Assembly: GCA_008632985.1 (NCBI GenBank)
Contig: QPGO01000033.1
Coordinates: 1-64,000 of the forward strand
Direction: 5' to 3'
Length of the DNA stretch: 64,000 nt
DNA from: Psammoneis japonica
Lineage: Eukaryota
A program made the position numbers and the translations under genes. Shown here piece by piece: positions 2,431 to 62,420 of the stretch; position 1 is the stretch's first letter, and every line of letters starts with the position of its first letter. The notes below the pieces were generated by a model. The model worked only from the letters and a program-made list of their open reading frames with translations. It did no database searches and had not been told where the DNA came from.

Positions 2431-3216
2431 TTTATGAAAGAAGGAAAGACGTTGTCTTGCTGTTTTGATGCTCTCAGTTTTCTTTGCCTCCCTACCGTAG
2501 CTGCTTAGGGGTTGAGGGTTGATTGATGATTGATTGAATTGGAAGATGGCAGCAAAACGGTTCAGTTCGTTGATGGCGGGAAAAACGTCAGAAAAATTTG
2601 AAACGAACCCGGAGGAAAAAACCGTTGAGCCGACGACGTGCGGACGATTTGGCGCGCCCAAAATAAATCGAATCGTCTCGCCACTCGTACGGCACGTACT
2701 CGCCATCGAGCTCGCGACGATCTGGAACCGAGAATTCAAGACTCTGCTCAGAAGCACCAAACCATGGACCATGGCGTTCAGCAGCAACTGGCAGTGAACC
2801 ATCTCAAGCATTTGCACTGCAAAAAAGAAATGTCTTCTCCCCGTGCTCTTTGTGCGACTCCCAGGAAGGTCGCTGGTGGTTCCACACGATGTGCAAGCCT
2901 CAAGAACCGCCACGCACAATGTGGGTCAAAATCTCTGGTCTTAGAAGGGTTTTGTTCCAGGACACAAACACTGGTGTTGCAAGTTTCCTGACCAATGATG
3001 AAGCAGCAACAGAGAAGACACGGCTGGCAATGTGGAGGCACCAGACGAGAGCCGCTGCTCAAGTCTCTTGGAGGGCGAACAGATCATTGCGGCAAAGTTG
3101 ACAGCAGCAGGTTGCTGCTGCTTTGATGCTTTGATCTTCAATCACCTCCCGCACCCCCGTCAGATCTCTGCATCCAGCTGCAGTGCCGCTGAGCCCCCGT
3201 TTGCCCACAAGATGCT

Positions 3217-3492
3217 TGACAGGATTTGAACAGGATTTGGGTGCGCGCGAAATGTCGCGCGCTGTTTAGTTCACCGCGCACAGTTTTGTGTGCTTTAGTT
3301 CCGCGCGTTCGCGCACGATGTGGTTTGCTTTCGAGCCACAAGGCTCACAAGAACAACAACAGCAGCCCGATTGTGCCGACTTGCACGTCTTTCGGCTCCT
3401 GCAACGGTCTCTGAGCGGAGACTCATCTGCCATTTAGACAGCAGTGAGGAGTCATTGTTTGAATTCTTGCCATTTGCCTTCAATTTCTGTCA
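3217..3492 (+). repeat. 5' LTR of Copia copy 1
   Basis: Direct repeat of 9011..9286 with TG..CA ends. Confidence 0.97.
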
Positions 3493-4587
3493 GATTGACA
3501 GTCTTGCTCATTGTCAACCCATTGAGCAACCGCCATCGTCATCGTTGATTTACCGACGACGCCACTTCAATTCTGCGTGGACCTCCGTGTGTGTTCTACA
3601 TGCATCGGCAAGTCCACGCGCGTTCAATGCCAGGCATCGGCAGGAATTTAACGTCACCGTCAAGTCTCCTTGCCGCTGGATGTCTGGATTGATCATGCTG
3701 CCTTTGATCGCTGAAGACACACATCAACGGTCATGTCCAAGTCTGTCCTTGATCCTCATCCCTTGACACACCCATTCATCGGTTAACGGTCAAGAACCCT
3801 GCATGTTCAAGGATCTTCGTCGCTGAAGACACACATGTGTGCACATCTTCACGGCCAAGAACTTGTGCCCACTCTTCGGACTGCGGTTTTGCTGCCACTC
3901 TACAAGCACACCGAGTCCATTGCACCTGATCTGCCCCGGACTGCTGGTGCTCTGCAGATCTGCCAGGTCCACGAGGACAACTGTGAGAGCAAGCAGCCGT
4001 GGTTGCAGCCTGCGTTGGGGCGAGGGTGCTTTCCCGCGTTTGTTCATTCGTCCACAGTGCCTGACGCCTGCGTCAACTGGCCAGCCTGATCGGGAAATCC
4101 AACCAACATAAAATGAGAACGGTTCGGGGGTCTTGTCCACCTCTGGTCAGCTTGCCTGCAGGGGTTTACAACCCACTGCTCCGCTCGCAAGCAACCCAAA
4201 GCACCGCTGGCTGCGGGTTCGGACATGCCGGCACAACTCTACGGACCGGACAGGAAGTTTAGCACTTGACAACGAACGGGACAGCACAGCCCGGCGACTT
4301 CTGATTTTAAGGCAGTTCAAGATTTCAAGTCAAGTCCATTTCAAGTCAAGTCTGTTCTCACCCAAGTTTCAAGTCTGCCTTTGCTTCCCAACAAGAATTG
4401 CTTGTCCTGACACCACTTTTGTCCACCATGGTTCTCACTCGTCAGCAACAAACCGATGGTTTCGAGCACGTTGTTGGAACCGTGCTTGCCCAAGGTGCTG
4501 GGAGCCCTCTTCGTTTGGCTTTGACACAAGACGGCACGGACTCGCATCAAGAACTGTTCACGTTCACACCGTCCCAAATCGACTCGC

Positions 4588-7500
4588 TTGAGTGCGACAA
4601 CGGACCAATGGAAACGTCTCCCTCCCGACCACCAACGGATTTGGGATTCGTTGCCCCATTCCTCCAAGGCGATCATCCTTGAGCATTCTCGTCCGCCTCC
4701 CCGCAACCTGCGAGCCAGCAACTGCCATGAGTCCATTGCGGCCAACCTTCATGACCAATGCCTTGGGAGTGACGGTGATGTCAACTTGTCCAACACGACT
4801 CCTGCTGACTCTGGTGACTCCGCTCCAAGTGTGGATGCCACTTCGGATGGTCCCATCCTGGCGCACCTCACCAAGCGCAAGCCACTGCCACCCGGTGATC
4901 TGCAACGTCTGTTGTCTCCTAACCAAGCCCCCAACGCCAGTCGACCGGGGCCATCTGCCGCTCCCTCTGCCCCGCCAGCTTCTGCCCATGACACAGAACC
5001 CAATGGCCGCACTTGCCGTCGCATTGACAACCACAATGTCATTTGCTCTGCCTCTGCTCATCGCTCCACACGCACTGGTGCTCCAGTCGATCGTGGGGCC
5101 AACGGCGGCATTGCTGGCGACGACGTTCGCGTCATTGCACGCACCTCTCGCCAAGTCGACGTTCAGGGCATTGACGACCATCAATTGGTGGACATCCCTG
5201 TTGTCACCGCGGGTGCCGTCATTGAGACCCAGCGTGGTCCCGTCATCTCCATCCTCCATCAGTGCGCATGCACGGGCAAGGGCAAGACAATCCATTCCTG
5301 CGGCCAGCTCGAGTGGTGCAAACAGGATGTCAATGATCGCTCTGTCAAGGTGCCCAATGGCTTGCAACGTGTTGCCACTCCTGATGGCTGTGTCATCCCC
5401 ATTGACATCAAGGGCGGCCTGCCTCATGTTGCCATGCGACCTTGCACTGATGCCGAGTGGGACACCCTGCCCCATGTCATCCTCACCGGTGATGACACAT
5501 GGGATCCTTCCGTCCTCGATCACTCTGTCACTGATGACGACCAGTGGTGCGACGCGATCTCTGACCCACAGGACGATCCCACTGCCAACCTGTTTGACGA
5601 ATGCGGCAACTGCTGTCATCGTGTCGTTGTCAACGAGACCATCATGTCCGCTTCCTTGTCTGCCGATCACGCGTCTGCCCTCGATGATCACCTCATTCCG
5701 AACAACGACGTGTTCTGCGAGTGTCATCTGCACGCTGTTGACCCCAAGGATGATGACGTTCCGCCCCCGGAGCGCACTGTGCAGCCCAAGGACCCCCCCT
5801 TCGAGTCTCTTCGGCCTCACTTTGGCTTCCCACCTGCCGATGCGGTCCATCGCACTTTTGACTGCACCACGCAGTGCGTCCGCATGCCCGCCAGCACACA
5901 CCTTAGGAAGGCCCACAAATCACCCAACCCCGCCCTTAATGTGCACCGCCGCAACGAGCCTGTCGCCACTGACACCATTTGTGCCGACACCCTGGCCATC
6001 GACTCTGGTTGCACCAGCGCCCAACTGTTTGTTGGCACCGAGTCCACCGTCACTGACGTCTGTGGCACCAAGACGGACAAGGAGTTTGTCAACACACTCG
6101 AGGATCAGATCCGTGAGCATGGTGCCCCATCCAAACTCATTGGCGACCGTGCTCAAGTTGAGATCAGCAACAAGGTGCTCGGGATTCTACGAGCCCTCTT
6201 CATCTCCAGCTGGCAAAGTGAGCCTCACCAGCAACACCAAAACTTTGCCGAGCGTCGACACCAGACCGTGAAGCACATGGCGAACACTGTCATGGATCGT
6301 TTCGGTTCGCCTGCCCACACATGGCTGCTGGCGCTCATGTGCGTGTGCTTCATGCTCAACCATGCAGCGTCCCCACATCTCCACTGGCACACACCCCTCG
6401 AGACTCTCACTGGCTCCACCCCGGACATCAGCCCATTGCTTCGCTTTCACTGGTGGGAACCCGTGTGCTTCCACCTCGATGACTCCGATTGGCCATCCGA
6501 ATCCCGTGAGTTGCGTGGACGCTTTGTTGGCATTGCTGAGCACGTCGGCCACCAGATGACCTTCAAGATTCTCTCTGATGAGACTCAGAAGATCCTCTGC
6601 CGGTCCAACGCACGATCTGCTGCCACCGATCCTGCCGTTCGAAACCTGCGTCTTGATCCTCCTGATGGGGAGCCACCTGAACCCATCATCAAATCTCGCC
6701 ATGACGACAACCCCGTCGATTCTCCTGATGGGGAGATCAGGACACCCAAGATGCCAGTTTTTGATCCGCAAGACATCATTGGATGCACCTTCCTCATGCA
6801 GCCACAAGAGGACGGACAATGCCACAGAGCTCGCATCGTCAAGGCCGTCGAAGACCACGAATGGAAAGTGAACGGCAATCCCGAGCTCACCAAGTTCGTC
6901 TGCTCTGTCAACAACGACGAATGCGAGGAAGTCCTTGCCTGCAACGACATCATGAATCACATTGAGCAAGAAGACGAAGACACTGCTGTTTGGAAATTTC
7001 GACGCATTGTGTCACACGAAGGACCTCTGAAGCCTCATGACCCAACCTGGAAAGGCTCAAGCTACAACATCATGCTTGAATGGGAAAGTGGGGAGATCAC
7101 GTCCGAGCCTCTTGCCATCATCGCCAAGGACGACCCCGTCACCTGCGCCATCCATGCACGAGAGAACGGACTTCTCGACACTGATGGCTGGAAGCGGTTC
7201 CGCACCATCGCGAGGCGCCAGAAGAAGCTATTTCGCATGGCCAACCAAGCCAAGCTTCGCTCCTTCCGCACTGCACCTCGCCACAAGTGCGGATGCGAAG
7301 TTCCCCGGAACTGCAAACACGCCATGTCACTGGACAAACGCAATGGCAACCGCAAATGGGGAGACGCAACTAATCTCAAGATGGACCAACTCGGGGAATA
7401 CGAAGTCTTCCATGACTGCGGGCCCTTCGAGTCTTCCACTCCTCCTGCTGGACACAAGAAGATCCGAGTGCACCTGGTGTACGACGTGAAACACGACGGT

Positions 7501-9010
7501 CGCCACAAGGCATGACTCGCAGCCGATGGGCACCTCACGGACGTGCCCATCGACAGTGTCCACTCCGGAGTAGTCTCCCTCCGTGGCCTTCGGCTGATGA
7601 TTTTCCTGGCCGAACTCAACGAGTTGGAGACGTGGGCCACCGACATTGGCAATGCCTGCCTTGAAGCCACCACCAAGGAGAAGCTCTACATTGTGGCCGG
7701 ACCCGAATTTGGCAAACTCGAAGGACACATCCTTGTCATCCACAAGGCCCTGTGTGGACTGCGCAGCTCCGGTCTCCGCTGGCACGAGCGCTTCACCGAC
7801 TGCCTGCGAGCTGAAGGCTTCTTCCCCTGCCACGCCGAACCCGACATTTGGATGCACAGGAACGGCGACCACTGTGAACACATTGCCGTTTATGTGGATG
7901 ACCTCGCCATTGCTGTGAAGGACCCTCAATCTTTCATCGATGCTCTCACGGAAAAGTGCAAGTTCAAGCTCAAGGGCACGGGACCCATTGAGTTCCATCT
8001 GGGTTGCGACTTTTCCCGGGATCCCGACGGCACCTTGTGCCTGTCTCCGCGCAAGTACATCGAGCGCATGGTCGACAGCTGCACCCGACTGTTTGGGGAG
8101 AAACCCACCACCAACGCCCTGTCACCTCTGGAGAAGGGTGACCACCCCGAACTGGACACTTCTGAACTGCTGGAGCCCAATGGCATTCACAAGTTCCAGT
8201 CTCTTGTTGGTTCACTCCAATGGGCAGTGTCCCTTGGTCGAATTGACATTGCCACGGCCGTCATGTCACTCTCCAGCTTCCGAGCTGCACCCCGTCAAGG
8301 CCACTTGGATCGTGCCAAATGCGTCTGTGGGCACCTCTCCAAGATGCGACACGGAACTCTCCGCGTTCGCACGGAAGAGCCCGACTGTTCGGATCTCCCT
8401 GCTCTGGCCTGTGAATGGATGCATTCCATGTGCGGCAAAGCAGAAGAGATGATCCCGAAGGATGCTCCACCGCCCCTTGGCAAGTTCATCACTGCCACCC
8501 ACTACGTCGATGCAAACTTGCACCATTGCATGCTCACCGGACGCTCTGTCATGGGAATGCTCCACTTCCTCAACAAATTCCCGGCTGATTGGTTCTCTAA
8601 GAAGCAAGCCACCGTGGAGACTGCGACCTGCGGGTCTGAATTTGTTGCCGCAAGGACTTGTGTCGAACAGATTGTCGACCTGCGCATCACCCTGCGCCAC
8701 CTTGGCGTCCCGATCCGCAATGTCAGTTGCATGTTCGGTGACAACAAGTCGGTTGTAGACAGTGCCACCATCCCGCACTCCAAGTTACACAAGCGACACA
8801 CCGCACCATCGTTCCACCGTGTGCGTGAGGCGATTGCCTCTGGTCACCTTGAGTTCCACTTCATCGAAGGCTCCCACAACCCTGCTGACATTCTCAGCAA
8901 GCATTGGGGTCACTCCCAAATCTGGGACCTTCTCCGCCCCCTCATGTTCTGGAACTTCATTCCATCCGAAGTCGAATCTGTTTCTGTGACTCCTCAAGCA
9001 AACTGGGGAG
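4588..9010 (+). pseudogene. Copia pol (protease, integrase, RT, RNase H) with an in-frame TGA at 7513-7515
   Basis: Protease VDRGANGG. Integrase region SEPHQQHQNFAERR. RT ATDIGNA, LCGLRSSG and YVDDL. RNase H GDNKSV and NPADILSK. The stop replaces the Arg of KARL (CGA->TGA). Confidence 0.93.
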
Positions 9011-9286
9011 TGACAGGATTTGAACAGGATTTGGGTGCGCGCGAAATGTCGCGCGCTGTTTAGTTCACCACGCACAGTTTTGTGTGCTTTGGTTCCGTGC
9101 GTTCGCGCGCAATGTAGTTTGCTTTTGAGCCACAAGGCTCACAAGAAGGACAACAGTGGCCCGATCACACCGACTTGCACGTCTTTCGGCTCCTGTGATG
9201 GTCTCTGAGCGGAGACTCATCTGCCATTTAGACAGCAGCAAGGAGTCATTGTTTGAATTCTTGCCATTTGCCTTCAATTTCTGTCA
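9011..9286 (+). repeat. 3' LTR of Copia copy 1
   Basis: Follows the PPT and is followed by TSD ATGCT. Confidence 0.97.
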
Positions 9287-11491
9287 ATGCTGCTGCAATT
9301 TTTGACACATTTCCCAGCGGTGGCATTGTTTTTCATGTCATCCAATGGCCCTTTGGGCACATTGTAGAACCTGCCACACGCATTGGTGTCAGCAAAGGAT
9401 CTTCTCAGGCAACTTTCTTTCATGTGGCGGTTGTTGTCCAAAAGAGAACGGCAGTTTTGGAGGGAAATCACAGAGCAAATCTCAGTTTTGGGATGCCCTC
9501 AAAAAGACACAGCACCATGCAATCATGCACAGGGTGTTGCATTGATTGCTGCTGTGATCCTGAGGCTTAACAAGATTCTGTCACAGTCGCATCAAGCTGC
9601 TTGATTGATTCCTGTGCACGCCGTCCAGTGCACAAGGAAGTGCTCGATGTTGCTGTTGTCACAGCTGATCTTGCCGTTTCAAGGGGATCTCTGGGAAATT
9701 TTTGTCATGTGGAATTCTGTCGGGTCACAGAGCTTCTTGAAACCTGCATGAGTGCATGCTTTTGGGGTGTTGCAGCCATGTGGCTTGAGTTCATGGACAA
9801 ACCAGAAATTCCAAAGGAGCTGCAGATGGCGCACACAAGGCAACAATGCCGGGTCTTGCCTTCAAGCCGGCATCAGATTGTGCTCTCTCTGAACAGTGCT
9901 GCGTGAAAGCATTGTTTTGCACAAAAGAGTTGTCAGACGCAGCAACGATTTAGTTGAATCTGCTGTGTCTGCACTTTTTTGAAGACAGGTGGGATTCAGG
10001 ATGCCACTGGGGGTGATGTGCGCCACGACAAATCAGAGCAGTGCCTCTGGGGGCTCTTTCAAGATGTGGATTGCCTGTTTGCTGCCCATGGTCTTGAGGA
10101 CTTGTCACCCCCTGCTGTCACTTTTTCAAAGCACCTGAAACTGCACCTCCAGAGATCTGCCAAGGCACATTGTGCTTTGGTTGATGCAACGAGAACGGAT
10201 TCTGTGCAGACATTTTGGTCCAAGTTGGGATCCTGTTTGGAGCCACACAAGGATCCTTTTGCATTTCTCATTTCTGTTCTGTGGGTTGGAAGAAAGGGCT
10301 TCTAAAGAGATGCTTGTGAGATTGTTTTGGAGTGCAGGGATCACAGACATGTTCTTTTCTCCCAGTGCTTTCATCCAGGACACAATTTGACAGAGAATCC
10401 TGTGGGCTCTTGTCTGTGCAAGACAGTGGTTTGCTGCTCAAGGGGTTGTCAATGAACTTGACAGGATTTGAACAAGAGCTCAGTTTGTCACGCACAGTTG
10501 TGTGTGCTCTCAGTTCTGCGCGCAATGTGCCGTGCAGTTTGCTTTTTTTTACAACAACAACAACAGCACCGAGCGATGTCACGACACCAGTCTTTCGGCT
10601 CCTGTGATGGTCTCTGCATGGAGACTCATCTGCTGTTTAGACAGCAGCAAGGAGTTGTTGTTTTCTTCCACCCAGTCATCTTCAATTTCTGTCAGATCAA
10701 CAGTCTTGCTCATCTTCATCCATTGAGCATTCATCATCGTCATCGAGAACAATTTGTGCACCGTTGGCAGTGGAAGCACACACACACCTGCCTTCTTCAC
10801 TGTTTGGTTTTGTCCAATGCCTTCCGTCGTTGGGTGTGTTTGTTCAACAGACATTTGTTTGGTCAGGAATTCCCGAACTCTCAGACATCCGAGATCCCGG
10901 ATTCCCCGTGGCAGATTCTGTCTTGGTTGGCAGACAGACCAATCCATCCGCTCGCATTCACGCACACACAACACAAACCCTTGACTCTGGCCCTGCTCCA
11001 TGCATGCCCAGTCTGCCGCCTCACATCTGCACCAGATCACTGGTCTTCTACAGTCCTGCAAGGTCCACGAGGACAACTGTGAGAGGAAGCAGTTTGTGAT
11101 TGCAGCCTGCATTGGGGCGAGGGTGCATTTCCCACGTTTGTTCATCCCTCCACAGCACCAAATTTGGCCGGCCTGATCGGGTTGTCCAACCAATGTAAAA
11201 TGAGAACGGTTTGGAGGTCTTGCCCACCTCTGGCCAGCTTGTCAGCAGGGGTTTTTAGCCCGTCACTCCGCTCTCAGGCAACCCAAAGCGTCGCCGGGTT
11301 CGGACGTGCCGGCACAACTCTGAAGACTGGACAGGAAGCTTGGCATTTAACTGCAAACAGGACATCACAGCCTGGTGGCTTCTGACTTGCAAGACAGTTC
11401 AACACTTCAAGTCAAGATTCAAGTCAAGTTTCAAGTCATTTCAAGCTCACCCTCCAACTCCAGCCAGCCCCGACACCCACCCATTTGCAAC

Positions 11492-14400
11492 ATGGTTCTC
11501 ACCAGGCAGCAACAAATTGATGGCCTCGAGCACATTCTAGGCACTGTTCTGAATCAAGCTGCAGACAGTTCATTGCGCTTGGCCCTCAGCATTGACGGCA
11601 CTGACTTGCACCAAGATCTCTTCACTTTTACTCCGATGCAACTGGATGCCCTGGTTTGCAATGATGGCACCAATCAAATGCCCTTGCCATGTGGTTGCAA
11701 AGCACAGATGGCTGCGCTGATTAGTCTGCACACAGCACTGGCGCGCGGCAGCGCCGATGTCAGCAATGACCCCCACCTGTTCACACTTGAGGAGTTCACT
11801 GACTGTTGTCTCAGTCCTGAGCATGTGGCATCCCTCTCCATGGGTGCAGCACCATCTGCTCCCACTCCTGGCTCATTGCCACCAAAACCACCACATGACC
11901 CTGTGCGTGACTTTAAATGAGGAATCAAACTTGATCCACTCACCTTCGCGACTCTCAAGTCAGACAAACAGTGGCACATGTGGCACACCTCCATCATCGC
12001 ACAGGCCCGCTCCCAGGATGTCGACCATGTTCTCGATCCAGCGCACAAGCCCTCTACAGCTGAGGACAAGGCCCTGTTCAACAAGCAACAGAAACACATG
12101 TTCGCCACATTCGAACACATCTTGCAGAACAACAAAGGCAAGGCACTTGTTCGTGAACATGTCGGCTCCTCTGATGCTCAAGCAGTGTGTCGTGACCTGT
12201 CCAAGTGCGCCCTTGCATCTGCTCCTGCATCCCTGGAGTCCTTAATCCTTCTCACGCACCTCACCACTGCCCGCCTTGGTGATGACACCTGGAAAGGATC
12301 CACTCATGCCTTCATGCTTCACTGGCAAGACCAGCTTTGCAAGCACAAAGCTCTTGTTCCGGGTGCAGACCACTTCTCTGCTGGCCAGAAATGTGCCATG
12401 CTTGAGAACGCCATTCATCCCATCGAAGAACTTTGTTTGGCAAAGAATCAAGCCAATCAGTTTTGCACTCAGAATGGCAGAGGCCTTTCTTGCCAACAGC
12501 ACTGTGGGCTCCTGCTTTCTGCAGCAGCACAGTGCAACAGCATGTTCACCCCCAAGATGGCTCCTTGTGCTCCATGCTGTGCCATCTACAAACATGACTT
12601 GGCCCCTGACGACCCTGATGATGATGTGTTCTTCAACATCAACAGTGATGTGTTGATGTCATTCAAGCTCATGCTGCACAGACTCGTGGCAACTCCCTCA
12701 CCAGGGGACAATGGCATCGCATCCCGTTGGACCATCAGCGCATTTGGGACACCTTTCCCCAGTCCACCAAGGCTGTCATCCTTGGCTCGTGCACTGCCCA
12801 CACCGGCAACTGCCATGACTCGATGGCAGTCAACCTGCACGACCTCCACATTGGCAGCGATGGTGATGTCAACTTGTCTGCCAATGCCCACAATCTTGCG
12901 TTGGCCTCCGCACCACAGGATGCTGCAGCCAATGCAGCCAATGCCAACCCAATTCTGGCTCATCTCACCAGGTGCAAGCCTCTGCCACCCGGCGACCTGC
13001 AACATCTCCTGGCACCTGAGCGGCCTCCTTCCGCCCATTCTGGAGAGAAACCCCCCAGATCTGCAACTTCCGTCTGCTCCAATTAGAAGCCCAATGACAC
13101 TGACATCAAGATCAGTGGTCATAAATGCCATCGCGCTAACAACCACAATGTCGTCTGCTCTGCATCAACCCACAAATCGACTTGCAAAGGCACCCTTGTG
13201 GATTGTGGTGCAAATGGTGGCATCGTCGGTGATGATGTTTGTGCCATTGCTCACGCTGGTCACCAGGTTGACATCCAAGGTGTCGACAATCACCAACCAG
13301 TTGACATTCCCATTGTCACTGCCGGTGGTGTCATCCACACACAACGCAGCCCCGTCATTGCCATTCTTCACCAGCATGCCCACACTGGAAAAGGCAAGAC
13401 CGTGCACTCTTGCGGTCAACTTGAGTGGTGCAAGCACGGCATCAACGATCAGTCCATCAAGGTCCCCAATGGTCTGCAGCACATCACCACCATTGATGGG
13501 TGCATCATCCCCATTGACATCAAAGGTGGCCTTCTGCACATCACCATGCATCTGCACACTGATGCCAAATGGGACACCTTGCCACAAGTTGTCCTCACTG
13601 GTGGCGACACTTGGGACCCATCTGTCCTCGACCACCATTTCGCCGACAATGAGACGTGGCATGATGCCGTGTCTGACCTCCAGGCCGACCCAACTGCCAA
13701 CCTCTTTGATGAGTTTGGCAACTGTCGCCACTGCCATGTCATCAACAATGCCATGCTTGTGGACTCCGTCCTTGATGACCACCTGCTCCCGATGTCCGAT
13801 TTGTTCTGCAAATGCCATGAGCACGAGATCAATCCAAAGGATCCCAACTTTGAGTCTCTGTTGCAATGTGCAGCTGCCAATGAGAGCCAATGTATCACGG
13901 CGACGTGTTGCAGCCTTTAAATGTCACAAAGGGCGTGACAAAAATAACCTTTTGTCTGCATGCATGCTGCACTGTGAATTCACAGTGGAGTGGTTCATCG
14001 CAACCATCAGGCAGGAGGCCAGGGGTTCGAAACCCTGAGTGGGAGTTGTCTGCAGCAACGTTGATCACTGTCGAACGCGCAAAACTCTGTGCAGTTCTGT
14101 GTGTTCCTTCGTACGTGCCCACACTGTTCCGCCAAAACCGTGCAGTGTCAGCACACATTAGCAAAGAGCCGCATGGACGTGTGACACATGGGGAGGAGTG
14201 CAACACACAGCTGCTGACAAGAGTCAATGCATCACGGCGACGTGTTGCAGCCTTTAAATGTCACAAAGGGCGTGACAAAAATGACCTTTTGTCTGCATGC
14301 ATGCTGCACTGTGCCCTCATTTTGGCTTTCTCCCAAAAGGTGCTGTTTGCCACACTTTTGATTGCATGACACAACACGCCCGCATGCCAGCCAGAATGCA

Positions 14401-17400
14401 CTTGAAAAAGGCGTGCAAGTCGCCCAACCCGGCTCTCAATGTCCGCCGATGCAACGAACCTGTTGCTGCTGACATGGTGCACTCTGACACCCCCACCATT
14501 GACTCTGGCTGTGCCAGCACCCAGCTCTTTGTTGGCGCCAAATCCCTTGTCACGGACGTGTGCGGAACCAAGACCGACAAGGAATTCATCAACATGCTTG
14601 GGGACAACATTCATGATCGTGGTGCCCCGTCCAAGCTCATCAGCGACCGTGATCAAGTTGAGATTGGCGACAAGGTTCTTGGCATCCTCCGTGCCCTCTT
14701 CATCTCTGGCTGGCAAAGCGAGCCTCACCAACAGCATCAGAATTTTGCTGAATGTTGCTGCCAAACTGTGAAGACCATGGCCAACACCATCATGGATCAC
14801 TTTGGGTCTCTGGCTCACACCTGGCTGCTTGCCCTGATGTGCCTGTGCTTTGTGCTCAACCACACAGCATCTGCCAAGCTCCGCTGGTGCACCCCCGCTA
14901 AAGTGCTGTCTGGCTCTGCTCCCAACATCAGCCCGCTCCTCTGTTTTCAATGGTGGGAACCCGTGTGCTGTCACCTGGATGACTCTGACTGGCCGCCCAA
15001 ATCCCGTGAATTGTGTGGTCGCTTTGTTGGCATTGCTGAACACACGGGCCACCAAATGACATTCAAGATTCTTTCTGACGACACTCAGAAGATTCTCTGC
15101 CGTTCCAACGTGCATTCCATCCATGACCCATCTGCTCCAAACCTGTGTCTTGATCCTCCTGACAAGAAATCTGCTGAACCCATCATTGAATCCCGCCATG
15201 ACTCTGAGGATTCGCCGGATTCACCAGATGGGGAGGTGATCAGGATGCCCAAAATGCCAGTCTTTGACCCCAAGGACATCATCAGATGCACCTTCCTCAT
15301 GAAGCCACAAGAGGACGGACAATGCCACAGAGCCCGCATCATCAAAACCGTTGAGGACCATGACTGGAAAATTGGAGACAATCCTGAACTGTTCAAGTTC
15401 ATTTGCTCCATCAACAATGATGAATGCAAGGAAGTCCTGGCCTGCAATGACATCATGCACCACATCAAGCAAGAAGACAAGGACACTGCCCTCTGGAAGT
15501 TCCGATGCATTGCATCGCACAAAGGACCATTGCAACCCCATGATCCCTCTTGGAAAGGCTCAAGCTGCAACATCATGCTTGAATGGGAGAATGAGGAGAT
15601 CACGTCTGAACCCCTTGCCATCATTGCCAAGGATGATCCCGTCACCTGTGCCATCTACGCACATGAGCACGGCCTCCTTGAAACTGAAGGATGGAGATGT
15701 TTTTGCAAGATGGCTCTGTGCCAGAAGAAGCCATTCCGCATGGCCAATCAAGCCAAGTTACACTCTTTTTGTGCTGCGCCATGACACAAGCATGGACATG
15801 AAGTGCCACGGGACTACAAGCATGCCTTGGCCCTCGATGAGCGCAATGGCAACTGCAAGTGGGGAGATGCAACAGACCTTGAGATGACTCAGCTTGATGA
15901 GCACGAGGTCTTCCATGACTGCGGACATTGCAAGGATTCCAGTGCTCCATCAGGACACAAGAAGATCTGGGTGCATCTCGTCTGTGACGTCAAACATGAT
16001 GGACGGCACAAGGCAAGGCTTGTTGCCGATGGACACCTCACAGACATGCCCATCGATGGTGTCTGCTCTGGAGCAGAGTCTCTTTGCGGCCTGCGAATGA
16101 TGATCTTCCCAGCCAAACTCAACGAACTGGAGACTTTGGCCACTGACATTGGGAGTGCCCATCTTGAAGCTGTGACCAAGGAGAAACTGCACATCACAGC
16201 AGGCCCCAAATTTGGTGAGCTAGAAGGACACATCCCTGTCATCCTTTGGGCCTTGCACGGACTCCGCAGCTCCGGCCTCAGATGGCATGAACGTTTTGCT
16301 GATTGCTTGTGTGCTGAAGGTTTCTTCCCATGAAAAGCTGAACCTGACTTCTGGCTGCGTGGGAACGGTGACCACTGCAAATGTGTTGCAGTGCATGTGG
16401 ACGACCCAGCCTTTGTCATGAAGGATCCCCAGGCTTTTGCATGCACTCTCATGGAGAAATGCAAGTTCAAGCTCAAGGGCACTGACCTTTGGAGTTCCAT
16501 CTCGGTTGCAACTTCACCCATGATCCAGATGGCACCCTGTGCCTTGCCCCTTGCAAGCACATTGAATGCATGGTTGACAACTGCGCGCGCCTCTTTGGGG
16601 AGAAGCCCCGCACTGATGTGCTTTCACCCCTTGACAAGGGAGACCACCCTGAGCTTGACACCTCCAAATTGCTCAAACCGGAAGGCATCCACCAGTGCCA
16701 ATCCTTGATTGGCTCCCTGCAATGGGCTGCATCTCTTGGTCACATTGACATTGCTGCGGCTGTCATGTCCCTGTCCAGCTTTCATGCAGCACCCCGCCAA
16801 GGCCACCTGGACCGCGCCAAACAAATCTGCAGATTCCTCTCCAAGATGCGTCATGGTGCCCTCCGAGTGCACACCGAGGAGCCCAACTGTTCGGACCTTC
16901 CCAAGCCCGTGCATGACTGGGCCCAGTCTGTGCATGGGGAGGCAAAAGAGCTGCTCCCACAAGATGCGCCCAAGCCACTTGGCAAGTTCGTCACCATGAC
17001 ACACTGTGTTGATGCGAACTTGCTCCATTGCACGCTCACTGGACGCTCTGTCACCAGCATCCTTCATTTCCTCAACAAGTTTCCGGCTGATTGGTTCTCC
17101 AAGAAACAAGCAACAGTCAAGACTGCCACGCATGGATCCGAGTTTGTTGCTGCAAGGACATGCGTTGAGCAGATCATTGACCTGTGCATCATTTTGCGTG
17201 ATCTTGGCATCCCCATTTGTGAAACATGTTGCATGTTTGGGGACAACAAGTCAGTTCTGGACAGTGCTGCCATCCCGCACTCCAAGTTACACAAGCAACA
17301 CACCACCCTCTCATTCCATCGTGTGCATGAGGCGATTGCTTCCAGCTTCCTCGAGTTTCATTTCAACGAAGGTTCCCGCAACCCAGCTGACATCCTCAGC

Positions 17401-17529
17401 AAGCATTGGGGTTGCTCCCAAGTCTGGAACCTCCTTCATCCTCTGATGTTTTGGAACTTGGATCCCGAGGCTTTCAACCAATCTGACCTCAAATCTGTCA
17501 CTGTTGACCCCCTCAAGCAAACTGGGGAG
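11492..17529 (+). pseudogene. Copia gag-pol of copy 2, broken by stops, frameshifts and a nested insertion
   Basis: Fragments 11375..11920, 11978.., 13198..13920, 14297..15784, 15803..16333 and 16489..17532. The pol fragments align to copy 1 pol. Stops at about 11918, 15782 and 16331, and a frameshift near 16485. Confidence 0.9.
13862..14308 (+). mobile_element. Miniature non-autonomous LTR element (TRIM-like), 447 bp, nested in Copia copy 2
   Basis: 110-bp direct repeats at 13862..13971 and 14199..14308 with TG..CA ends. Purine tract GGGGAGGAG immediately before the second repeat. 4-bp TSD CTGT at 13858-13861 and 14309-14312. Removing the insert restores the frame FESLCPHFGF, which matches copy 1 FESLRPHFGF. 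Confidence 0.88.
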
Positions 17530-20390
17530 TGACAGGATTTGAACAAGATTTCAGTTTGTCACACATGGTCATGTGTGCTCTTAGTTCCATGCGCAATGCT
17601 CCATGCAGTTTGCTTTCAAGCCACACGGCTCACAAGAATGACAACAGTGGCGCCAACATCAAAACACCAGTTTTTCAGCTCCTGTGATGGTCTCTGCATG
17701 GAGACTCATCTGCCATTTAGACAGCAGTGAGGAGTCATTGTTTTCTTCCACCCAGTCATCTTCAATTTCTGTCAGAACTCATTGGCACCAAAGCCACAAA
17801 TGCAATTGTCCAACATTCTCTCTGGAGAGAGCTCTGCATCATTGAAATGATTCAAAAGTCTTTGTGTCGCTTCTGGCCAGTGGCAGTGCAAAATTTGAAC
17901 AGCGGCGTTATGAGCAAACTGGTTTGACATGGCTTGAGAGCTTTCCATTGGCGCCAAAACAGGGGCTCACATTGTCAAAAACGTCGCAGAGACATCAACA
18001 CTGCATGCGACTGGAACATTGTTGTTCTCTGCTTTTGTCAGGCTTGTGTGCATCCATGATTGTTGGATGAAGTCTCGTTTGTGATGTGACACAGTGCCAT
18101 GTGTAGAAAAAACTCAATCTCATTGCAAAAAGCATCTTCTGGGTGCATGCTTTCTAGTCAAATTTGCTTCCATGAATCACCTTGACATGATCTGGGAGAG
18201 GGACAAGTGGATCAGGCATTGAATGGTCAGCATGCCAATGCAAAATGTGAGAAGTCACAACACGGAAGAACTGACAACATCCCGCTTGTTTCTGTTTTCT
18301 GTGGCAATGCTGCACGCGGAGTGCAGTCCGTCATCCAAACGAGTTCATTGGCCGCCAGCGCAGGAAGTTCTTCCTTGCATGAGACAATGCAAGTGATTGC
18401 ACCTGCCATGGCAATCAACAATGCCTGGGACATTCTTGTTGACAAGAGCATCCCACAATTCACTTGTGTTGCTGATGTTGGATGCCATGTGGATGCCTCC
18501 ACAATGTTGATCGGGCTCAAGCAACGCGCCCCGGCCCCACGGATGCTCCTTGCCCAGATCAAATTCTGATGCATTTGGGTCCTCGGAAAACACCCCCGGC
18601 AATTCAATGTGGAGTCCCTGACATTGCTGGGCATGTCTGGCTTGTACAAAACTCTCGTGAACCGTCAAGTGGCCGACTTGACCAAGTTCTTCCTTCATGT
18701 GCGGACATTTTTCTGTGCAGCTGTCATGGCAGCACTGAAGACAAGCAGGGAGTGATTCCTTGTCTCTGAATCAAAACAGCATCATGTTTGCATTTTGATC
18801 AGCAGGCTCTGGGAATTCCACAACTCCGCACGATGCAAACGCAATGGATCCTTTAAGAGAGTGCACGACATGGGTTCGTTCTAACCGTTGGGGGGACAAT
18901 TTCCACCCCGAGGAAAAATGTGGAAACCGTCTCCTTCATTCAAACTGACATTGCCCACACATGAAGCAGGTGGTGTCAGGGTGATGTGCTTGGCCCATTT
19001 GGATGCAACAAATGAGCAAATGTGATGCACAATCGTTGTGTCGCATCCACACAAGACATGGAGAGAACTCTTGAGATCCCATGTTCCTGCCAGCAGAAGC
19101 ATCAACTCAGGTTTCCAACCAAAAGACTTGGTGTCAGGATAAAAGCCACATGCCAGCGCTGGAAGGCGTTGCATCATCCTCGCTTCAGCTGCATGGACAT
19201 TAAAGGATGGACCTTGTCTAACTCGCGAACGCGTGGCAGAGCTCCAGATCCGCTTCAGGCTCATCTGCTCATTGCAAGTCAGATTGTGTCGCTTGCTTGC
19301 TGATGCGATCCTTCAGCATGTTATTGTATGCTTTACGACGTATGTAGTTAGTTTGCTCTTTTATGCTTATCAAACGTGCAGCCACAGCATTGTCATGATC
19401 TGATGGAACAGATCACAGCAATCCGATCCGCGAAACGTGCGACCTGCGGCGGCGCGGCTGAATCGTGCATCCTGTCTGTCCGTACGTGAAAAACCGCGCG
19501 CGCCAACATCAGATTTCTAAAACGAGCATTCGATGCGTATCATGCCATGCTTTCGCAAACGCGATTGTGATGTTGGAAACGACGGCAACAATAACTGCTT
19601 ATCTGCACAGATATTTTTCGCATTCTTAAAATTGCTCTTTAGCCGCTTGCGCGGGTTACTTGACGAACCGCAGTCTTGCACTTTCTTCACTCGATCTAGC
19701 CGGGGCCATCGGTGGGGTAATTCTCGACCAGGTAGGTAACCTTTCGCTTCGTATTGCAGTGAGCCTTGAAAAGGGGGCAACTCGGATACACTCGTGTGTG
19801 GAAGCCTTGGTTGACCGAAATTGAAAAAGAACTCACATCAAGATCAATCAAGAGATCTCCGCCAGGTTCACAAGATTCCGTGAAAATGCTTTTAACGAAC
19901 CATTCACCAGAATTCCTAAAACCAAGTTTGGAACTCCTGTCGCCATGATGTAGGGCCCACCTTGTGCATCTTTCTGATTGCTGGTCAACGTCGAATCCTT
20001 TCAATGAACAAATACAACCGTCCTTGGGAGGACAGTGCTCTTCGTTGTCTTCACCTGATAAAGCTTCGAACAAGACCTCCAATGAGTTCGAAACACATGC
20101 AAAAGTGGCAGCCTTTCGCAGTGTCACAACAGAACGATTCTTCATGATATAAAGTACACAACACAGGCTCTTGTTTTGAGAAAGGATGAACGGGAGATGG
20201 AGGCAGAGGCCGGCCACCGCAAGCACCAATCAGAAGAAGCCCGGAAATTTTCAAGCGCCGTACGGTACTGTATGATAAAGTTCCAGCAGCGTGAGCCGTA
20301 CATACACGGCTGATGCACCGTTCACTTAGTCCCCATGATACTTTAGGCTGCAAATAGAAAGAACAGGAACTGCCGGCTCTTACATCGAAA

Positions 20391-43346: not shown

Positions 43347-44885
43347 TGCTAAGTTGACCTGCCCACTCGGAATTCCAGCTGGTTATTGCTGGCACCGTTT
43401 GTTGCTACGATGATCCGTGTGCGCTTTCGCTAGAGCTATCGGTCGTCGTTGTGGCTTTCGTTGCTTCATTCGGGCTTCATTCGCGCTTGCGAGTGGGCCA
43501 ACCATTTCGCTATGCGACGCCGAACAAAGAAGAAAATGAAAAACGGAGTTGAGGAATACAGACCTGAGAAACTTCAATGTTCCATTTTCCCGCCCTTTTG
43601 ACCACGCGCGCAAACCCGACTGCGAAATTCCATGTTGGTTGTCTAATTTTGTGTCCCTCGAAAAATGTTACTTCGTGCCTTAAAGATGGGATTGATTTTA
43701 TGTCACAACATATGGAATGATTTCTACATGGGATGCAACAAGATTTGGCACATCCCTTTCTCTCTCAAAATCGACCATGATGCCGCTTTTGAAGCCCCCC
43801 AAAACACAGAAGCACCACGTTCAGACAACGAAGAAGAAAGCGACACTTGCAAAGGGCTCTGCCGGCGCCTCACTGAGAAGCTTTCTGTTCCAGATGCAAC
43901 AAAGAGTGGGTCCAACAAGAAGACCACTGAAGCCAAGAATGATCAAGACAAGAAGCACAAAGCACCAACGGATGGCAGCAAGAGCAGTGGGTGTGTTGTG
44001 GCAAAGAGGCCAAGGATGAGCTGGCCCAAGAGGAGCCTTGCCTGCCAGCCATGGCGGGAGCAGTGAATGAGCAGCTTGGCAAGAAAAGCTGGCACTGTGA
44101 TGAGAGAAGCTTGGTCAATGGAGGCATTTGTCAATGATGTTGGAGCAGTGTGATGCCTGTCAGTGCTTTCTCAGAAAAGCGTGCCAACGACGACCCCCCT
44201 GCAAGAGACTCTGAAGCTGCTCTGGCACCACTCTTTGTTGCTTCTCCACTGGAGCCCCATGGAAAGTGTCCATGCTTGATTCCAGCTCAAATCAAGAAAA
44301 CCCACTGCTCCTCCCATGCAAAAGGCTTGACAGTGCGCAATGGAAGACCCAACAAACAACCACCAAGCTCTAGACTGTCCACTCAGAGATTTGCCAGGGG
44401 CACATGCAGTTGGGACAAATTGCTGTCCTTTCCCAGCTTGTTTGTTGGCAATGCAACACAAAGTTGGTGCAGCAATGGCACGTCAATGCTGACTCAGCTC
44501 TGCCAGTGGCATGGACACAAAGAGGGCATTGTGCCAGAAAGTGCACATGATTCTGAGATGGCACAGATGTCTGCACTTGCTTGTTGCAAAGAAAACCCTT
44601 GATGGTGCTTCTTGAGTGACACCCAGTTTTCAACAAGTGCAACCTTTTTGAGCTTCAAAGTGCCAGAGTGGTGATGGTGTCAACAATGATTTGGCTCTTC
44701 CAGCATGTCATCATAAAGCTCTCATTCTGAAGACAGGCACACTCTTCTTGTTTGCTGCCCAGTTCAATGATCATGATGTGACAATGCTGGTTGGTCAGGC
44801 AAATGTTTGGCCCAAGCTCTGATGGATGGAAGGAGGTGGACACAATGGAAAGACCATGTTGCTGGACAGACAAAAACCCATGACC

Positions 44886-44887
<2 letters not shown>

Positions 44888-44916
<29 letters not shown>
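44888..44916 (+). repeat. (CT)n microsatellite
   Basis: Perfect CT run of about 14 units. Confidence 0.95.
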
Positions 44917-44920
<4 letters not shown>

Positions 44921-46179
44921 GCACACTTCATTTGTGAGCCACAAGGTTGCAAAAAAGACTGCTCACACAGCTTGTGTGCTGGTTTGGAGAACAGCACCCA
45001 CACATCTTGTTTGCTGAGCCACAACACGGACACAGCAAACAATTGATGCTCCCAACAATCAACCAGCCTTCAATGATTGGGAGAGGTTGCTCCAATCTCT
45101 CTGCACTGGCTCTCCACATCAGAGTCATTTCTGGGAAGATTTCAAGCTGTGGCAGGGGCAAAATTTTCCTGGAGTTTTGCACTCAGGCAGCAGCTCAAAA
45201 TGTGTTGCCAATCAACCCACTCTGTGACAATTTGTTCAAAGAGTCATCAGCAGTTTGTTCCTTCAACTGTGTGCCAAGGAAGTTGGCAATGTTGTCCTTG
45301 TTGGCTGGCTCAAGCCTTTTGTCATGCAGGAGCCCTGAGCAAGCACACCTGGTCAATGTCTGGCTTGCATCATGCTTTGCCAATCCCACAGCCATCAATG
45401 TGCAGACAGATGATGCAACTGGCTCAAAGCAGGAGGCAAGGGTGCACATGGGCAAAGAGGCATAAAGTGGTGGCTGAAATGTGCCTTGATCTCCTGGCTC
45501 AAGTTGTGCTGGTGGCTCTCATGGACCAGCAAATGAAAGAGCTGCTCTTGACAGGCAGACCACACAGGGGCAGGCAGCAATCCAAGATGAACAGAAGTTT
45601 GGGCTGCACAGACACCTGACAAGTCACATCTGGTTGTGTGCACTGGAAGAGCCCAGAGCACAGCAGGGGCTGCCTGGAAGTCTGCAGCATGCTTTGATGC
45701 GGGGCAGGTCCACACTTCCTGACATCAGTTGCCCACTTGCATCCTTGGCATGTGTTTCTGCATGTGCTTTTGTGCTGATGTCACTCTTTTCCGATGGCAT
45801 TTTGCTGGGTCCCCTGACACCCTTTTGGCCACTTCTGTCATTGGTGTGCCCTCATTTCAGCATCATGTGCAACAATTTTTAGTGGAAACAACTGGCATTG
45901 ATGCCTTGTGGTTCGCATGCTTGTTGCCTTGTTCAGAATTTTTTTCAAATTCAGTGCATTTTCTACACAGGATCTGGTGCAAATTCTGTGCACTTCAGAA
46001 ACACCCACCGATGATTGCAACGTCCTTGATGATGAAAACAACTTCCATTCACACCCGTCAGCCCACCATGATTTCTTTTTCTCCTGCCAGCTGCTCAAGT
46101 CCTTCACCTCATGTGGTGAAAGTGCTTTCTAAAAGGTCAACAAACAAGTTGTTCTTAAGACTTTGAAAGATTGCAGCTG

Positions 46180-47110
46180 GAATCAGATCCAAACTTGGGG
46201 AGCCCCTCTTCATCTGTGAGCCCAGTTGGAGAACCAAGCTGCACTCAAGCAAGCAGTGCTTCAGGAGCACAACAGCACCCATCCTTGTTTTTGCTGGCAG
46301 CAATGCACAGCTGTTGAACTTGATGCAAACTGTGGCAAACTTGCACAAGATCTGTTGTCGACCAACAAGATTGTCCACCGCTACAACCCAACACATCCCG
46401 ACTGCTGCACACACTGCCAACATCTGCTCATGGACAGAGACCACAATTTTGTGGTGCGAACACAATGAGTCTTGGTGGAGCACCTTTCTCCAGTGCTTGC
46501 GGAAGAAGTGTGATGACATGCACACATCTCTGTCACTCCAGGATCTGTTGCTGCATGCTCTTGAGGGATGGTTTCATGACAACTTGCTTCATTCTGAAAA
46601 TGTCCATGAGAGTGCTGTGGCAGTGTTTCAATCTCAAGACAAAGTTGGTTGGAGACAGATTTTCAATGGGTGTTTCTCCTCATTCTGGAACAAAGCTCAA
46701 GCATCACACTTGTTGTCCACTGGTTTGTGTCACTCCTTGTCAGATGAGGAAAGGCACTTAGATTGGGCCGCCATGATTGGCAGTTTTGTGTGTGGTCTCA
46801 ATGGTGGGAACTTTGGGACAGTCACAACGACGCTGTGCATGGGCACAATTCTGAAACAAGAAAGTCCTCACAGTGCCAAGATGCTGAGGCAGAAGTGCAA
46901 GCTGTCTGTTCCAAGGCTGAAAACTGTTTGGCTTGTGATCAATCTGAGTTGCTTGATTCAGTGGAGGAACATCTTACCCATTCGACCCACAGATTGCGCA
47001 ATTGGTTGGCTGTGGTCAGGCCAATGTTCAAGTCAAACGTCCACGAAGCCCGGTGTCCAGCAGTGAGGGGCACTTGCACCATTGCAAGTTGCTTTGGCAT
47101 GGCATCACCT
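46180..47110 (+). mobile_element. Degraded 3' part of a non-LTR (LINE-like) retrotransposon ORF
   Basis: Frameshifted motifs LLSTNKIVHRYNP..CCTHC...DRDH (zinc-knuckle-like), QDKVGWRQIFNG and WELWDSHNDAVHG resemble the C-terminus of LINE ORF2 proteins. Confidence 0.6.
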
Positions 47111-50100: not shown

Positions 50101-50122
50101 TCTGCTGCCCTGTTGTTCCACC

Positions 50123-52360: not shown

Positions 52361-52484
52361 AGGTTCGAATGTTCCCAGTCTATGCACCATGCCCTGTTGC
52401 CAATGCAGTGTTGTCCAAAACTGTTCCATTTTTCACTCTCGATTAGTCTACGTTGTCCCTGACAGGTCCGTTCGTCTCATCGCA

Positions 52485-61840: not shown

Positions 61841-62420
61841 GTGTTTACAGAATCGACTAGGTGACGTTGTCAAAGTGCGAACCCCGATCACGGAGTTTGG
61901 CAGGAACAGCTGTTTGCTGTCACCCCGCTCAACGGCAGCCACACGATTTGGTGTCAGATGCGATTCCGAGGTTGAGTGTGATTGGTCAACTAGAAAGGAA
62001 AGTGCAATGCTGTTAAATAAAATTTTCAAATCTGACGAGGAAAAATGAAGAATTACTTATCGATTTGAACGAATCCGAACAATCAACATCAAAGGCATTT
62101 AAATCCCATTTTTGAATATTTAAGAAGGTCATCAAAATATTTAGGGAATCAATCACGATCAGACTGGGCAATTGAATCTTCAATATCAAAACGGTTGAAT
62201 TATCTGATTGGTTATCGTCCTTTTCTTGACATCTTGAAGGGCCCACTTGACACCTGACCATAAATACCAATTCCATTCTTAGTTCCGCGGAACACTGAAT
62301 CTTCTACGGAGGAATTCCTACATATTTACGTAGGAGACGGCTCGCTGGAGTGCAGTGTTGTTGCACGTGACAGGGAACTCCCATAATTTCCTTCGCCAAC
62401 AAACAACGGAAGAAACGACC

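Follow-up and report, generated by a model that had tools for sequence, protein, structure and literature searches.

TpA-specific hypermutation of retroelement blocks in a contig of the diatom Psammoneis japonica

Introduction

Over long stretches of one contig of the diatom Psammoneis japonica the dinucleotide 5'-TA-3' (TpA) is nearly absent, and these stretches contain mobile elements. The window analyzed here, which comprises positions 1 to 64,000 (forward strand) of contig QPGO01000033.1 in assembly GCA_008632985.1, holds two Ty1/Copia long terminal repeat (LTR) retrotransposons (elements A and B), a retroelement with split direct repeats (element C) and TpA-poor sequence of unclassified origin, including blocks D and E. 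The question raised by this locus is whether TpA was removed from these elements by mutation in place and, if so, in which direction, at what time, on which strands and under what guidance. A first-pass annotation, made from the sequence alone, had described an A-to-G mutator acting at TpA, confined to transposons and opposite in polarity to the repeat-induced point mutation (RIP) of fungi. Based on the evidence presented below, we consider it likely that the signature, its direction, post-insertion timing, strand symmetry, sequence context and edges are as described, and that the process is of the same kind as one reported from the chlorarachniophyte alga Bigelowiella natans (Mettrop et al., bioRxiv 10.64898/2026.01.13.699255).

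Extent of TpA depletion

Per-kilobase dinucleotide counts gave a TpA observed-to-expected ratio (O/E) of 0.02-0.18 in all 16 one-kb intervals between 3001 and 19000, compared with 0.27-0.77 in the gene-bearing flanks. Across 2701-19320 (O/E 0.085), 77 TpA were observed where 909 were expected from base composition and 665 from the frequency in window sequence outside the depletion; with 665 expected, a count of 77 or lower has a Poisson probability of 3e-185. The near-absence of TA over about 16.6 kb beside normal flanking genes, as first annotated, was thus confirmed. The annotated interval is not the sole site, since the same depletion was also found at 43.73-56.94 kb and 59.0-61.99 kb.

Domain borders were sharp (<100 bp), with TA positions bracketing the edges at 19219/19322, 43725/44371, 57134/57182, 59004/59494 and 61991/62014. 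Dense TA resumes from 19322 at the right edge of domain 1; its left edge, at about 2700, is softer than the other edges and is marked by TA positions that become sparser past 2697. TpA was also sparse in 63530-64000, with just two (63668 and 63708) beyond 63528, and a further depleted block may start at the end of the window.

Dinucleotide composition was compared between the depleted domains (32.5 kb) and control sequence from gene regions of the same window (30.0 kb). The domains contained 165 TpA (O/E 0.091) and the control 1202 (O/E 0.582). Host genes adjoining the domains had normal TpA, and the depletion was limited to mobile-element blocks, in agreement with the confinement claimed at first. 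From control to domains, TA per base fell from 0.0400 to 0.0051 and CG from 0.0572 to 0.0410, while TG rose from 0.0711 to 0.0967 and CA from 0.0716 to 0.1014, so that the increase in TG and CA offset the decrease in TA and CG. In total the domains held 3146 TG and 3300 CA, and their GC content was 52.7%, compared with 47.5% in the control.

Direction, timing and specificity of the change

The coding frames of the elements were compared with those of intact relatives. The open reading frame (ORF) at 4588-7515 in element A (975 aa) contains 3 Tyr, 35 Cys and 53 His, and it represents the pol frame because P0175, an intact Copia polyprotein of 1881 aa in public protein data, aligns across 4585-8979 in one frame (tblastn). 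The scarcity of Tyr in this ORF had been pointed out in the first-pass annotation together with a set of peptides, all of which were located at homologous sites of A and B: LCGL (7750) and LHGL (16253), TCGSEF (8626) and THGSEF (17128), NACLEA (7651) and SAHLEA (16154), YVDD (7891) and HVDD (16394), and APRHKCGCEVPRNC (7273).

Conserved Tyr columns for element A were defined by a Tyr frequency of 70% or more among 37 long Copia homologues; at the 12 columns obtained, A reads His in 5, Cys in 4, Tyr in 2 and Phe in 1, with other conserved residue classes retained at 67-100%. The 9 columns for element C, based on 53 homologues, read His in 4, Cys in 3, and Trp and Tyr in 1 each. Across A and C, 60-100% of the other conserved residue classes were retained. 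With P0175, the closest intact homologue, as the Tyr reference, its tyrosines correspond in A (n=53) to Cys 24, His 9, Phe 6, Tyr 4 and others 10, and in B (n=61) to His 23, Cys 21, Phe 5, Tyr 2 and others 10. Intact homologues have a Tyr content of 2-6%, and 79 of 79 metagenome relatives of C have a TA O/E of 0.44-0.86, in a scan whose peptide patterns favored intact copies and which is uninformative on how frequent the process is elsewhere. Because Tyr columns read Cys or His in the window, intact homologues hold 2-6% Tyr and the relatives of C are TpA-normal, the shortage of TpA is best understood as a loss at this locus and not as an inherited family trait.

Comparison of copies within the window provided information on timing and polarity. 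LTRs are identical at integration, and a CA/TG doublet between two copies represents one ancestral TA that turned to TG in one and to CA in the other. Such doublets accounted for 5 of 7 adjacent double differences in the LTR pair of A, 9 of 15 in that of B, and 72 of 251 between A and B, where the next class counted 23; in a duplicated host Myb gene, used as control, they accounted for 0 of 11. Repeats B1 and B2 of element C (250 bp, ~240 bp apart) differ at 20 positions, all of them transitions. B2 keeps all of its 17 TpA, 16 of which are changed in B1 (12 to TG and 4 to CA), and the remaining differences are one CA/TG doublet, one CpG to TpG and one GA to GG. The changes in B1 therefore affected 16/17 TpA vs 2/96 other A/T bases and 2/120 G/C bases. 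Of the shorter A repeats, A2 retains 3/3 TpA and A1 has lost 2/3.

Altogether, these comparisons indicate that the mutation is real and occurred after insertion at the DNA level, turning TpA into TpG or CpA on both strands and in each copy independently. The similar numbers of both products mean that both strands were targets, and editing of the sense RNA or of a single complementary DNA (cDNA) strand is excluded. Most of what the first-pass annotation had proposed on these points held: TA was lost rather than gained and specifically at TpA (polarized repeat), both strands were affected (TG and CA totals; Cys and His both as products), and copies mutated independently (doublets in the LTR pairs and between A and B). 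The excess of A-to-G changes at TpA over other contexts, on which the annotation had made its own reading depend, is present in the B1/B2 spectrum.

Sequence context, rate and coding consequences

The survival of TpA depended on the neighboring bases. It was lowest in ATAT (0; 0 of 83-equivalent), GTAT (0.009) and ATAC (0.019) and highest in TTAA (0.44), TTAG (0.40), CTAA (0.28) and CTAG (0.23), a strand-symmetric pattern with its minimum at R-TA-Y and its maximum at Y-TA-R (R, purine; Y, pyrimidine). In Tyr codons, where the 3' base is always a pyrimidine, the ratio of Cys to His was 28:9 after a pyrimidine and 17:23 after a purine (Fisher p = 0.005). The survival by context and the split in Tyr codons fit a preference of the mutated A for a 3' pyrimidine, i.e., T-A-Y, which equals R-T-A on the opposite strand. 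At polarized non-coding sites outside Tyr codons the choice of product was mixed, 4 matching this rule and 3 not. No clear sign of strand-coordinated (processive) clusters was seen among 100 doublets between A and B, which formed 51 runs vs 49 expected; a run count of 4 vs 7 in B1 (p = 0.046) gave a weak hint of such clustering.

In B1, 16/17 TpA were lost vs 1/12 CpG, which puts the per-site rate of the TpA process at roughly 30 times that of CpG decay, a figure from small numbers in one polarized repeat. CpG O/E declines with element age, from 0.86 in C (terminal-repeat identity 98%) and 0.82 in A (93%) to 0.46 in B (80-84%) and to the still lower values of block D (Table 1), where no repeats were found; TpA is near saturation in C, A, B and D alike. 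Diatom transposons are CG-methylated by DNMT5a (PMC9998398), and the CpG decay of the present elements agrees with such methylation.

Depletion of TpA also altered the reading frames. TAA and TAG on both strands together amount to 7.0 per kb in the domains vs 34.3 per kb in the control, and frames of at least 90 aa number 48.9 vs 29.6 per 10 kb. Long open frames occur in all six frames because TAA and TAG vanish and the process makes no stops. Among the 150 Copia reverse transcriptase (RT) homologues listed from public protein representatives, four (P0226, P0254, P0260 and P0282) have 0-0.5% Tyr and raised Cys and His. These fragments are only 45-58% identical to A and B and appear to be protein predictions made from hypermutated members of other families.

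Identity of the affected elements and neighboring genes

The features of the window are listed in Table 1. Elements A and B each have an LTR pair, a 5-bp target-site duplication (ATGCT at 3212-3216 and 9287-9291 for A, by end inspection; GAACT at 10454-10458 and 17775-17779 for B), an RVT_2 domain (E 6e-20 and 1e-6) and an alignment to the full-length polyprotein, as Copia elements do. The pol frame of A has one stop, and the two elements are ~75% identical. Read depth summed across A and B was hundreds of times the flank depth, a figure that is not a copy number and that points to high-copy families. The integrase domain was undetected by Pfam in A and B, and RVT_2 was the only Pfam match in the depleted blocks, even at E <= 1. 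A 106-bp direct repeat with 93% identity lies within B at 13871-13976 and 14208-14313.

Table 1. Location and properties of the features discussed in the text.
Feature	Position	Strand	TA O/E	Properties
TpA-depleted domain 1	2701..19200	.		two nested Copia insertions and unclassified depleted pieces
Unclassified pieces of domain 1	2701-3211, 9292-10453, 17780-19200			no Pfam or other homology in profile and similarity searches
Element A, Ty1/Copia LTR retrotransposon	3217..9286	+	0.10 (internal)	LTRs 3217-3492 and 9011-9286 (276 bp, 92.8% identity by self-comparison); pol frame 4525-9060
Element B, older Copia copy	10459..17774	+		LTRs 10459-10694 and 17530-17774 (identity ~80-84%)
Block D, unclassified, TpA- and CpG-depleted	43730..48977	.	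0.03-0.08	CpG O/E 0.07-0.23
Element C, mutated part	48978..56941	+	0.14 (A1 to B1)	repeat A1 48978-49196; RT-RNase H ORF 51081-54665; repeat B1 56692-56941
Element C, spared 3' terminus	56942..57428	+	0.77 (487 bp)	A2 56942-57160; 18-bp spacer; B2 57179-57428
DENR-type gene	57648..58508	+		DENR_N E 2e-17, SUI1 E 3e-20 (Pfam); ATG 57648
Block E, unclassified, TpA-depleted	59005..61990	.	0.07-0.10	CpG O/E ~0.4

Element C has the layout A1 ... B1-A2-(18 bp)-B2, i.e., split direct repeats, and the metagenome relatives L037, L063, L070 and L071 show the same layout with repeats that are 99.6-100% identical. Its 1195-aa ORF has 54 homologues (P0121-P0174), none with a Pfam match (even at E <= 1) or a sequence match in the PDB. 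An AlphaFold model built from the homologue alignment (pLDDT 87.7) matches the RTs of foamy virus, Ty3, cauliflower mosaic virus and Moloney murine leukemia virus, plus ribonuclease H (RNase H). Because of this fold and the layout shared with the metagenome relatives, C is classed as a split-direct-repeat retroelement with RT and RNase H. Both the layout and the fold are traits of the DIRS order; a tyrosine recombinase gave no Pfam match in the other ORFs of C, which are hypermutated and were the only ORFs scanned for it. The C family looks like a DIRS-order lineage overlooked by current domain libraries. Its RT-RNase H protein is ~950 aa long, and the family is common in marine and mat metagenome contigs (loci L001-L079).

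Block D yielded no Pfam match, terminal repeats or homologue, including for its longest ORF, and block E yielded no Pfam match and no terminal repeats. The pieces around A and B likewise showed no terminal repeats, and D, E and these pieces had no similarity to one another or to the transposon proteins used for comparison. For the pieces next to A and B, a "single-copy" read depth was considered as proof of mutated host DNA and rejected, since old hypermutated copies would fall below 95% placement likeness.

Several genes lie in the remainder of the window. The product of a prolyl-tRNA synthetase gene (64-1569) shares 88% identity with a protein from a marine transcriptome, and its named relatives come from the diatoms Thalassiosira, Phaeodactylum, Cyclotella and Skeletonema. 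Tandem Myb-domain genes (33499-34575 and 35987-37114), which share 91% identity across 683 bp, and a pair of HMG-box genes in divergent orientation (37864-39273, minus strand, and 40210-41427, plus strand) with weak inverted similarity are both located in TpA-normal regions.

Targeting and the boundary within element C

The mutated part of C ends within the element, at the B1/A2 junction +/- ~60 bp, and the spared A2-B2 end sits 220-706 bp upstream of the DENR-type start codon. TpA density in the DENR-type gene, whose start codon lies 220 bp downstream of C, is normal. Since A2-B2 duplicates the mutated A1/B1 and yet was spared, sequence homology alone would not attract the process, and the term "repeat-targeted" used in the first-pass annotation did not survive this comparison. 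The process may instead follow silent chromatin and halt at an active promoter.

Proposed mechanism

According to the mechanism that we propose, elements would insert and join silent blocks, after which a DNA-level process would turn almost every 5'-TA-3' into TG or CA by mutating the A of TpA on either strand (A:T to G:C), with its highest activity where the A precedes a pyrimidine. Such a process would far outpace CpG decay, saturate during the life of a young insertion and end sharply at the border of an active gene. Element codons for Tyr, Ile, Leu and others would be scrambled, with no new stops created. The process is probably enzyme-driven, may be aimed by chromatin state rather than homology and may serve as genome defense. 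As its most likely agent we tentatively propose a TadA/ADAT2-like adenine deaminase acting on DNA, with inosine read as G, an assignment that we hold with less confidence than the existence of the process itself.

Competing explanations

Several other explanations were weighed, amongst which a sequencing artefact, family composition, RNA editing and DNA polymerase eta (Pol eta) are each unlikely. The strongest of these rivals is a route through thymine, in which a TET/JBP-type dioxygenase makes 5-hydroxymethyluracil (5hmU) or 5-formyluracil at TpA in silenced DNA, the modified base mispairs with G, and T changes to C; TpA decay would then accompany an epigenetic mark as a side effect, in the way that CpG decay follows from 5-methylcytosine (5mC). 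5hmU prefers TpA, and 5-formyluracil mispairs with G. The change from TA to CA or TG is symmetric, and T to C describes the data equally well. There is also a precedent within the SAR group (stramenopiles, alveolates and Rhizaria), as a study on dinoflagellates reports a TET/JBP enzyme that makes 5hmU silencing transposons (PMC11572971). The two dinoflagellate papers searched, however, held 0 occurrences of a TpA context, and the mutations in B. natans were confined to bursts in certain lines, a pattern that the preprint's authors interpreted as induced enzyme activity (10.64898/2026.01.13.699255). Additionally, the mark would have to be highly mutagenic for a young element to be almost completely saturated. 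We consider the thymine route unlikely, although it deserves more weight than the explanations that follow.

Editing before integration, of element RNA by an ADAR-like enzyme or of cDNA by an APOBEC3-like enzyme, would make the domain edges element ends, and the sharpness of the edges agrees with this. The doublets in the LTR pairs could also arise on double-stranded cDNA, and the A repeats of C (98.2% identical) show few TpA-type differences. On the other hand, the strands were hit about equally where editing of RNA or minus-strand cDNA would give one product, and sequence between and around A and B is depleted as well. The mutated part of C stops inside the element, sparing A2 and B2, which would have been copied together with A1 and B1 as the near-identical repeats of its relatives indicate. 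In B. natans, too, the mutations arise in situ in integrated DNA (10.64898/2026.01.13.699255). Editing before integration is thus very unlikely to account for the depletion.

Marginally less probable again is a bias produced by an error-prone, Pol eta-like polymerase recruited to silent DNA, or by GC-biased gene conversion. The A of WA motifs is the preferred site of Pol eta, and the GC content of the domains is raised. AA was not depleted, however (O/E 1.159 in the domains vs 1.165 in the control), and AT only marginally so (0.921 vs 0.941); all 20 polarized changes were transitions, 16 of them at TpA, and GC-biased gene conversion is without dinucleotide specificity. Of the reading put forward in the first-pass annotation, a TpA-specific A-to-G mutator confined to transposons and opposite to RIP therefore stands, while its repeat targeting and its suggestion of Pol eta at WA hotspots do not.

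The depletion might also be an artefact, with TA still present in the true sequence and base calling misled by a modification at heterochromatic TpA. Reads were available from one study with three runs, and the platforms of run X1 and of the assembly are not on record. Contigs of exact words from X1, at ~60x word depth, ran uninterrupted through the unique depleted stretches and agreed with the window (1 difference in 1-3244, 2 in 9260-10603, 0 in 17747-18175 and 3 in 18165-19034, only one of which restores TpA), whereas strand-specific miscalls would break such contigs. Miscalls of this kind should also yield CG and leave TA, and CpG is not raised; every site shows a single, fixed product that is chosen according to the neighboring base. 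The Tyr-free Copia fragments of other families in public proteins (4 of the 150 listed) also argue against an artefact.

Run X2, listed as "DNA?", behaves like a transcriptome, because a contig inside the prolyl-tRNA synthetase gene skips 142-220 (79 bases) with GT..AG ends, so that the skip between 141 and 221 marks an intron; coverage gaps of X2 within the domains were not taken as a sign of silence. One contig of X2 (226 nt, depth 162) matches element B at 13978-14203 with 9 differences, at 5 of which it carries TA in place of the CA or TG of the window. Because TA is carried at these 5 sites, TA is callable in the B family and less-mutated copies exist, and a less-mutated paralogue of B seems to be the one expressed. 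Altogether, these observations leave the artefact with a very small probability, below that of a Pol eta-like polymerase.

Least probable of all is that low TpA is an inherited or adaptive trait of these families (TA avoidance), for which the ~3 TpA per 219 bp of the A repeat of C at insertion could be cited but which the Tyr content of intact homologues, the TA O/E of all 79 relatives of C, the 17 TpA retained in the 250 bp of B2 and the CA/TG doublets of the LTR pairs already refute for A, B and C.

Certain points weigh against the post-insertion process as we describe it. Targeting by chromatin state draws on a single boundary, beside the DENR gene, together with the CpG decay of the older blocks, and the spared A2-B2 end could alternatively derive from gene conversion by an intact copy. 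Either old transposons or host DNA may be the source of blocks D and E and of the unclassified pieces flanking A and B. The sequence reads the same for A to G on one strand as for T to C on the other. No deaminase domain, and thus no enzyme, was seen among the ORFs scanned, a scan that covered this window. Finally, X1 may be the assembly's own data, which makes it supportive and not independent proof against a base-calling artefact.

Significance

The observations made here extend to diatoms, a major group of genetically tractable phytoplankton, a process known from a single 2026 preprint on a rhizarian alga, and hint that TpA erasure is widespread across the SAR supergroup. The T-A-Y preference, the action after insertion, the independence from homology and the halt at an active promoter may serve as handles for finding the enzyme. 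A saturating process that is faster than CpG decay would shape the evolution of transposons and the local GC content. Dating by LTR divergence is broken in such elements because much of the divergence here is TpA-driven. The depleted blocks are also a trap for gene callers, given their stop-poor long frames, and Tyr-free "proteins" are already present in public collections.

A more far-reaching idea is that of an old, dedicated defense enzyme common to diatoms and chlorarachniophytes and possibly ancestral to the SAR group, i.e., a natural A:T to G:C editor of T-A-Y that is recruited to silent chromatin and not to repeats, and that erases TpA from whatever DNA turns heterochromatic. We offer it as speculation, rather unlikely at present and less probable than the deaminase assignment. 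If true, such an enzyme would be a mirror image of RIP, the first natural DNA adenine deaminase for defense in eukaryotes and a template for base editors, and its T-A-Y footprint would allow invaded DNA to be dated and mapped in many protist genomes.

Comparison with known systems

RIP, known from Neurospora and other fungi, is likewise a transition hypermutation that follows integration, acts in one dinucleotide context on both strands and inactivates each transposon copy independently. It changes C to T at CpA and thereby creates TpA, whereas TpA is destroyed here, so that the opposite polarity noted in the first-pass annotation is evident. The domains have a TpA/ApT ratio of 0.099 and the control one of 0.618, where RIP is marked by a value of at least 0.89, as quoted in a Rhizoctonia study of ordinary RIP indices that is otherwise unrelated to this process (PMC7884421). 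The ratio (CpA+TpG)/(ApC+GpT), which RIP lowers, is raised to 1.71 in the domains. RIP is also triggered by duplication, unlike the process described here, which spared the A2-B2 duplicate beside the mutated copy, although this piece is short and a length threshold is possible; the sparing of homologous A2-B2 also distinguishes it from a purely small-RNA-guided model. Lastly, RIP creates stops, whereas TAA and TAG are removed here.

The decay of 5mC at CpG resembles the TpA process in being a domain-limited, strand-symmetric loss of a palindromic dinucleotide to TG or CA, and the two co-occur at this locus. The target is TpA here, however, and the loss is ~30x faster per site in the one polarized repeat.

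Amongst deaminases, TadA and ADAT2-ADAT3 convert A to inosine, read as G, next to a 5' U or T, and the natural site of TadA, U-A-C, fits the T-A-Y preference. These enzymes and ADAR act in nature on RNA (tRNA or double-stranded RNA), in contrast to the change on DNA proposed here. ADAR prefers a 3' G, whereas a 3' pyrimidine is preferred here. The data also differ from ADAR-type hyperediting fixed by retrotransposition, as both products occur in similar numbers and the repeats of C diverged after insertion. APOBEC3 and AID share the character of a deaminase-type hypermutation directed against mobile or foreign nucleic acids, but they change C to U on single-stranded substrates and in a strand-asymmetric manner, while the change here is A:T to G:C, symmetric and subsequent to integration.

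The closest likeness is to B. natans, for which the following is taken from the preprint (Mettrop et al., 10.64898/2026.01.13.699255). In mutation-accumulation lines, 231 of 302 nuclear single-nucleotide mutations fell in integrated nucleocytoplasmic large DNA virus (NCLDV) and virophage sequence, and 230 of these 231 were A to G or T to C, all at TpA. The rate there was ~1000x background, only some lines were affected, and TpA-poor coding sequences were enriched in RT and DDE domains. The preprint identifies no enzyme and proposes an ADAT2-like deaminase. The statement in the first-pass annotation that no system of this type had been described has thus been overtaken. A full-text literature search did not find TpA hypermutation reported for diatoms.

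As in B. natans, the change here is from TpA to TpG or CpA only, on both strands and toward GC, and it is limited to foreign or mobile DNA, the rest of the B. natans genome mutating normally. Unlike that chlorarachniophyte, a member of the Rhizaria, the host here is a diatom, i.e., a stramenopile, and the targets are Copia and split-direct-repeat retroelements instead of NCLDV and virophage insertions. The depletion is near saturation (O/E 0.09) in contrast to a Rho of 0.45 in the NCLDV region, and the evidence is historical, from comparisons of copies, whereas de novo mutations were measured in B. natans. This kind of process is thus already in print for B. natans, and it is new here, within the literature searched, for diatom retrotransposons and at saturation. 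To the account given in the available part of the preprint, this locus adds a preference for T-A-Y, a comparison of the rate with that of CpG decay, and a boundary that lies within an element.

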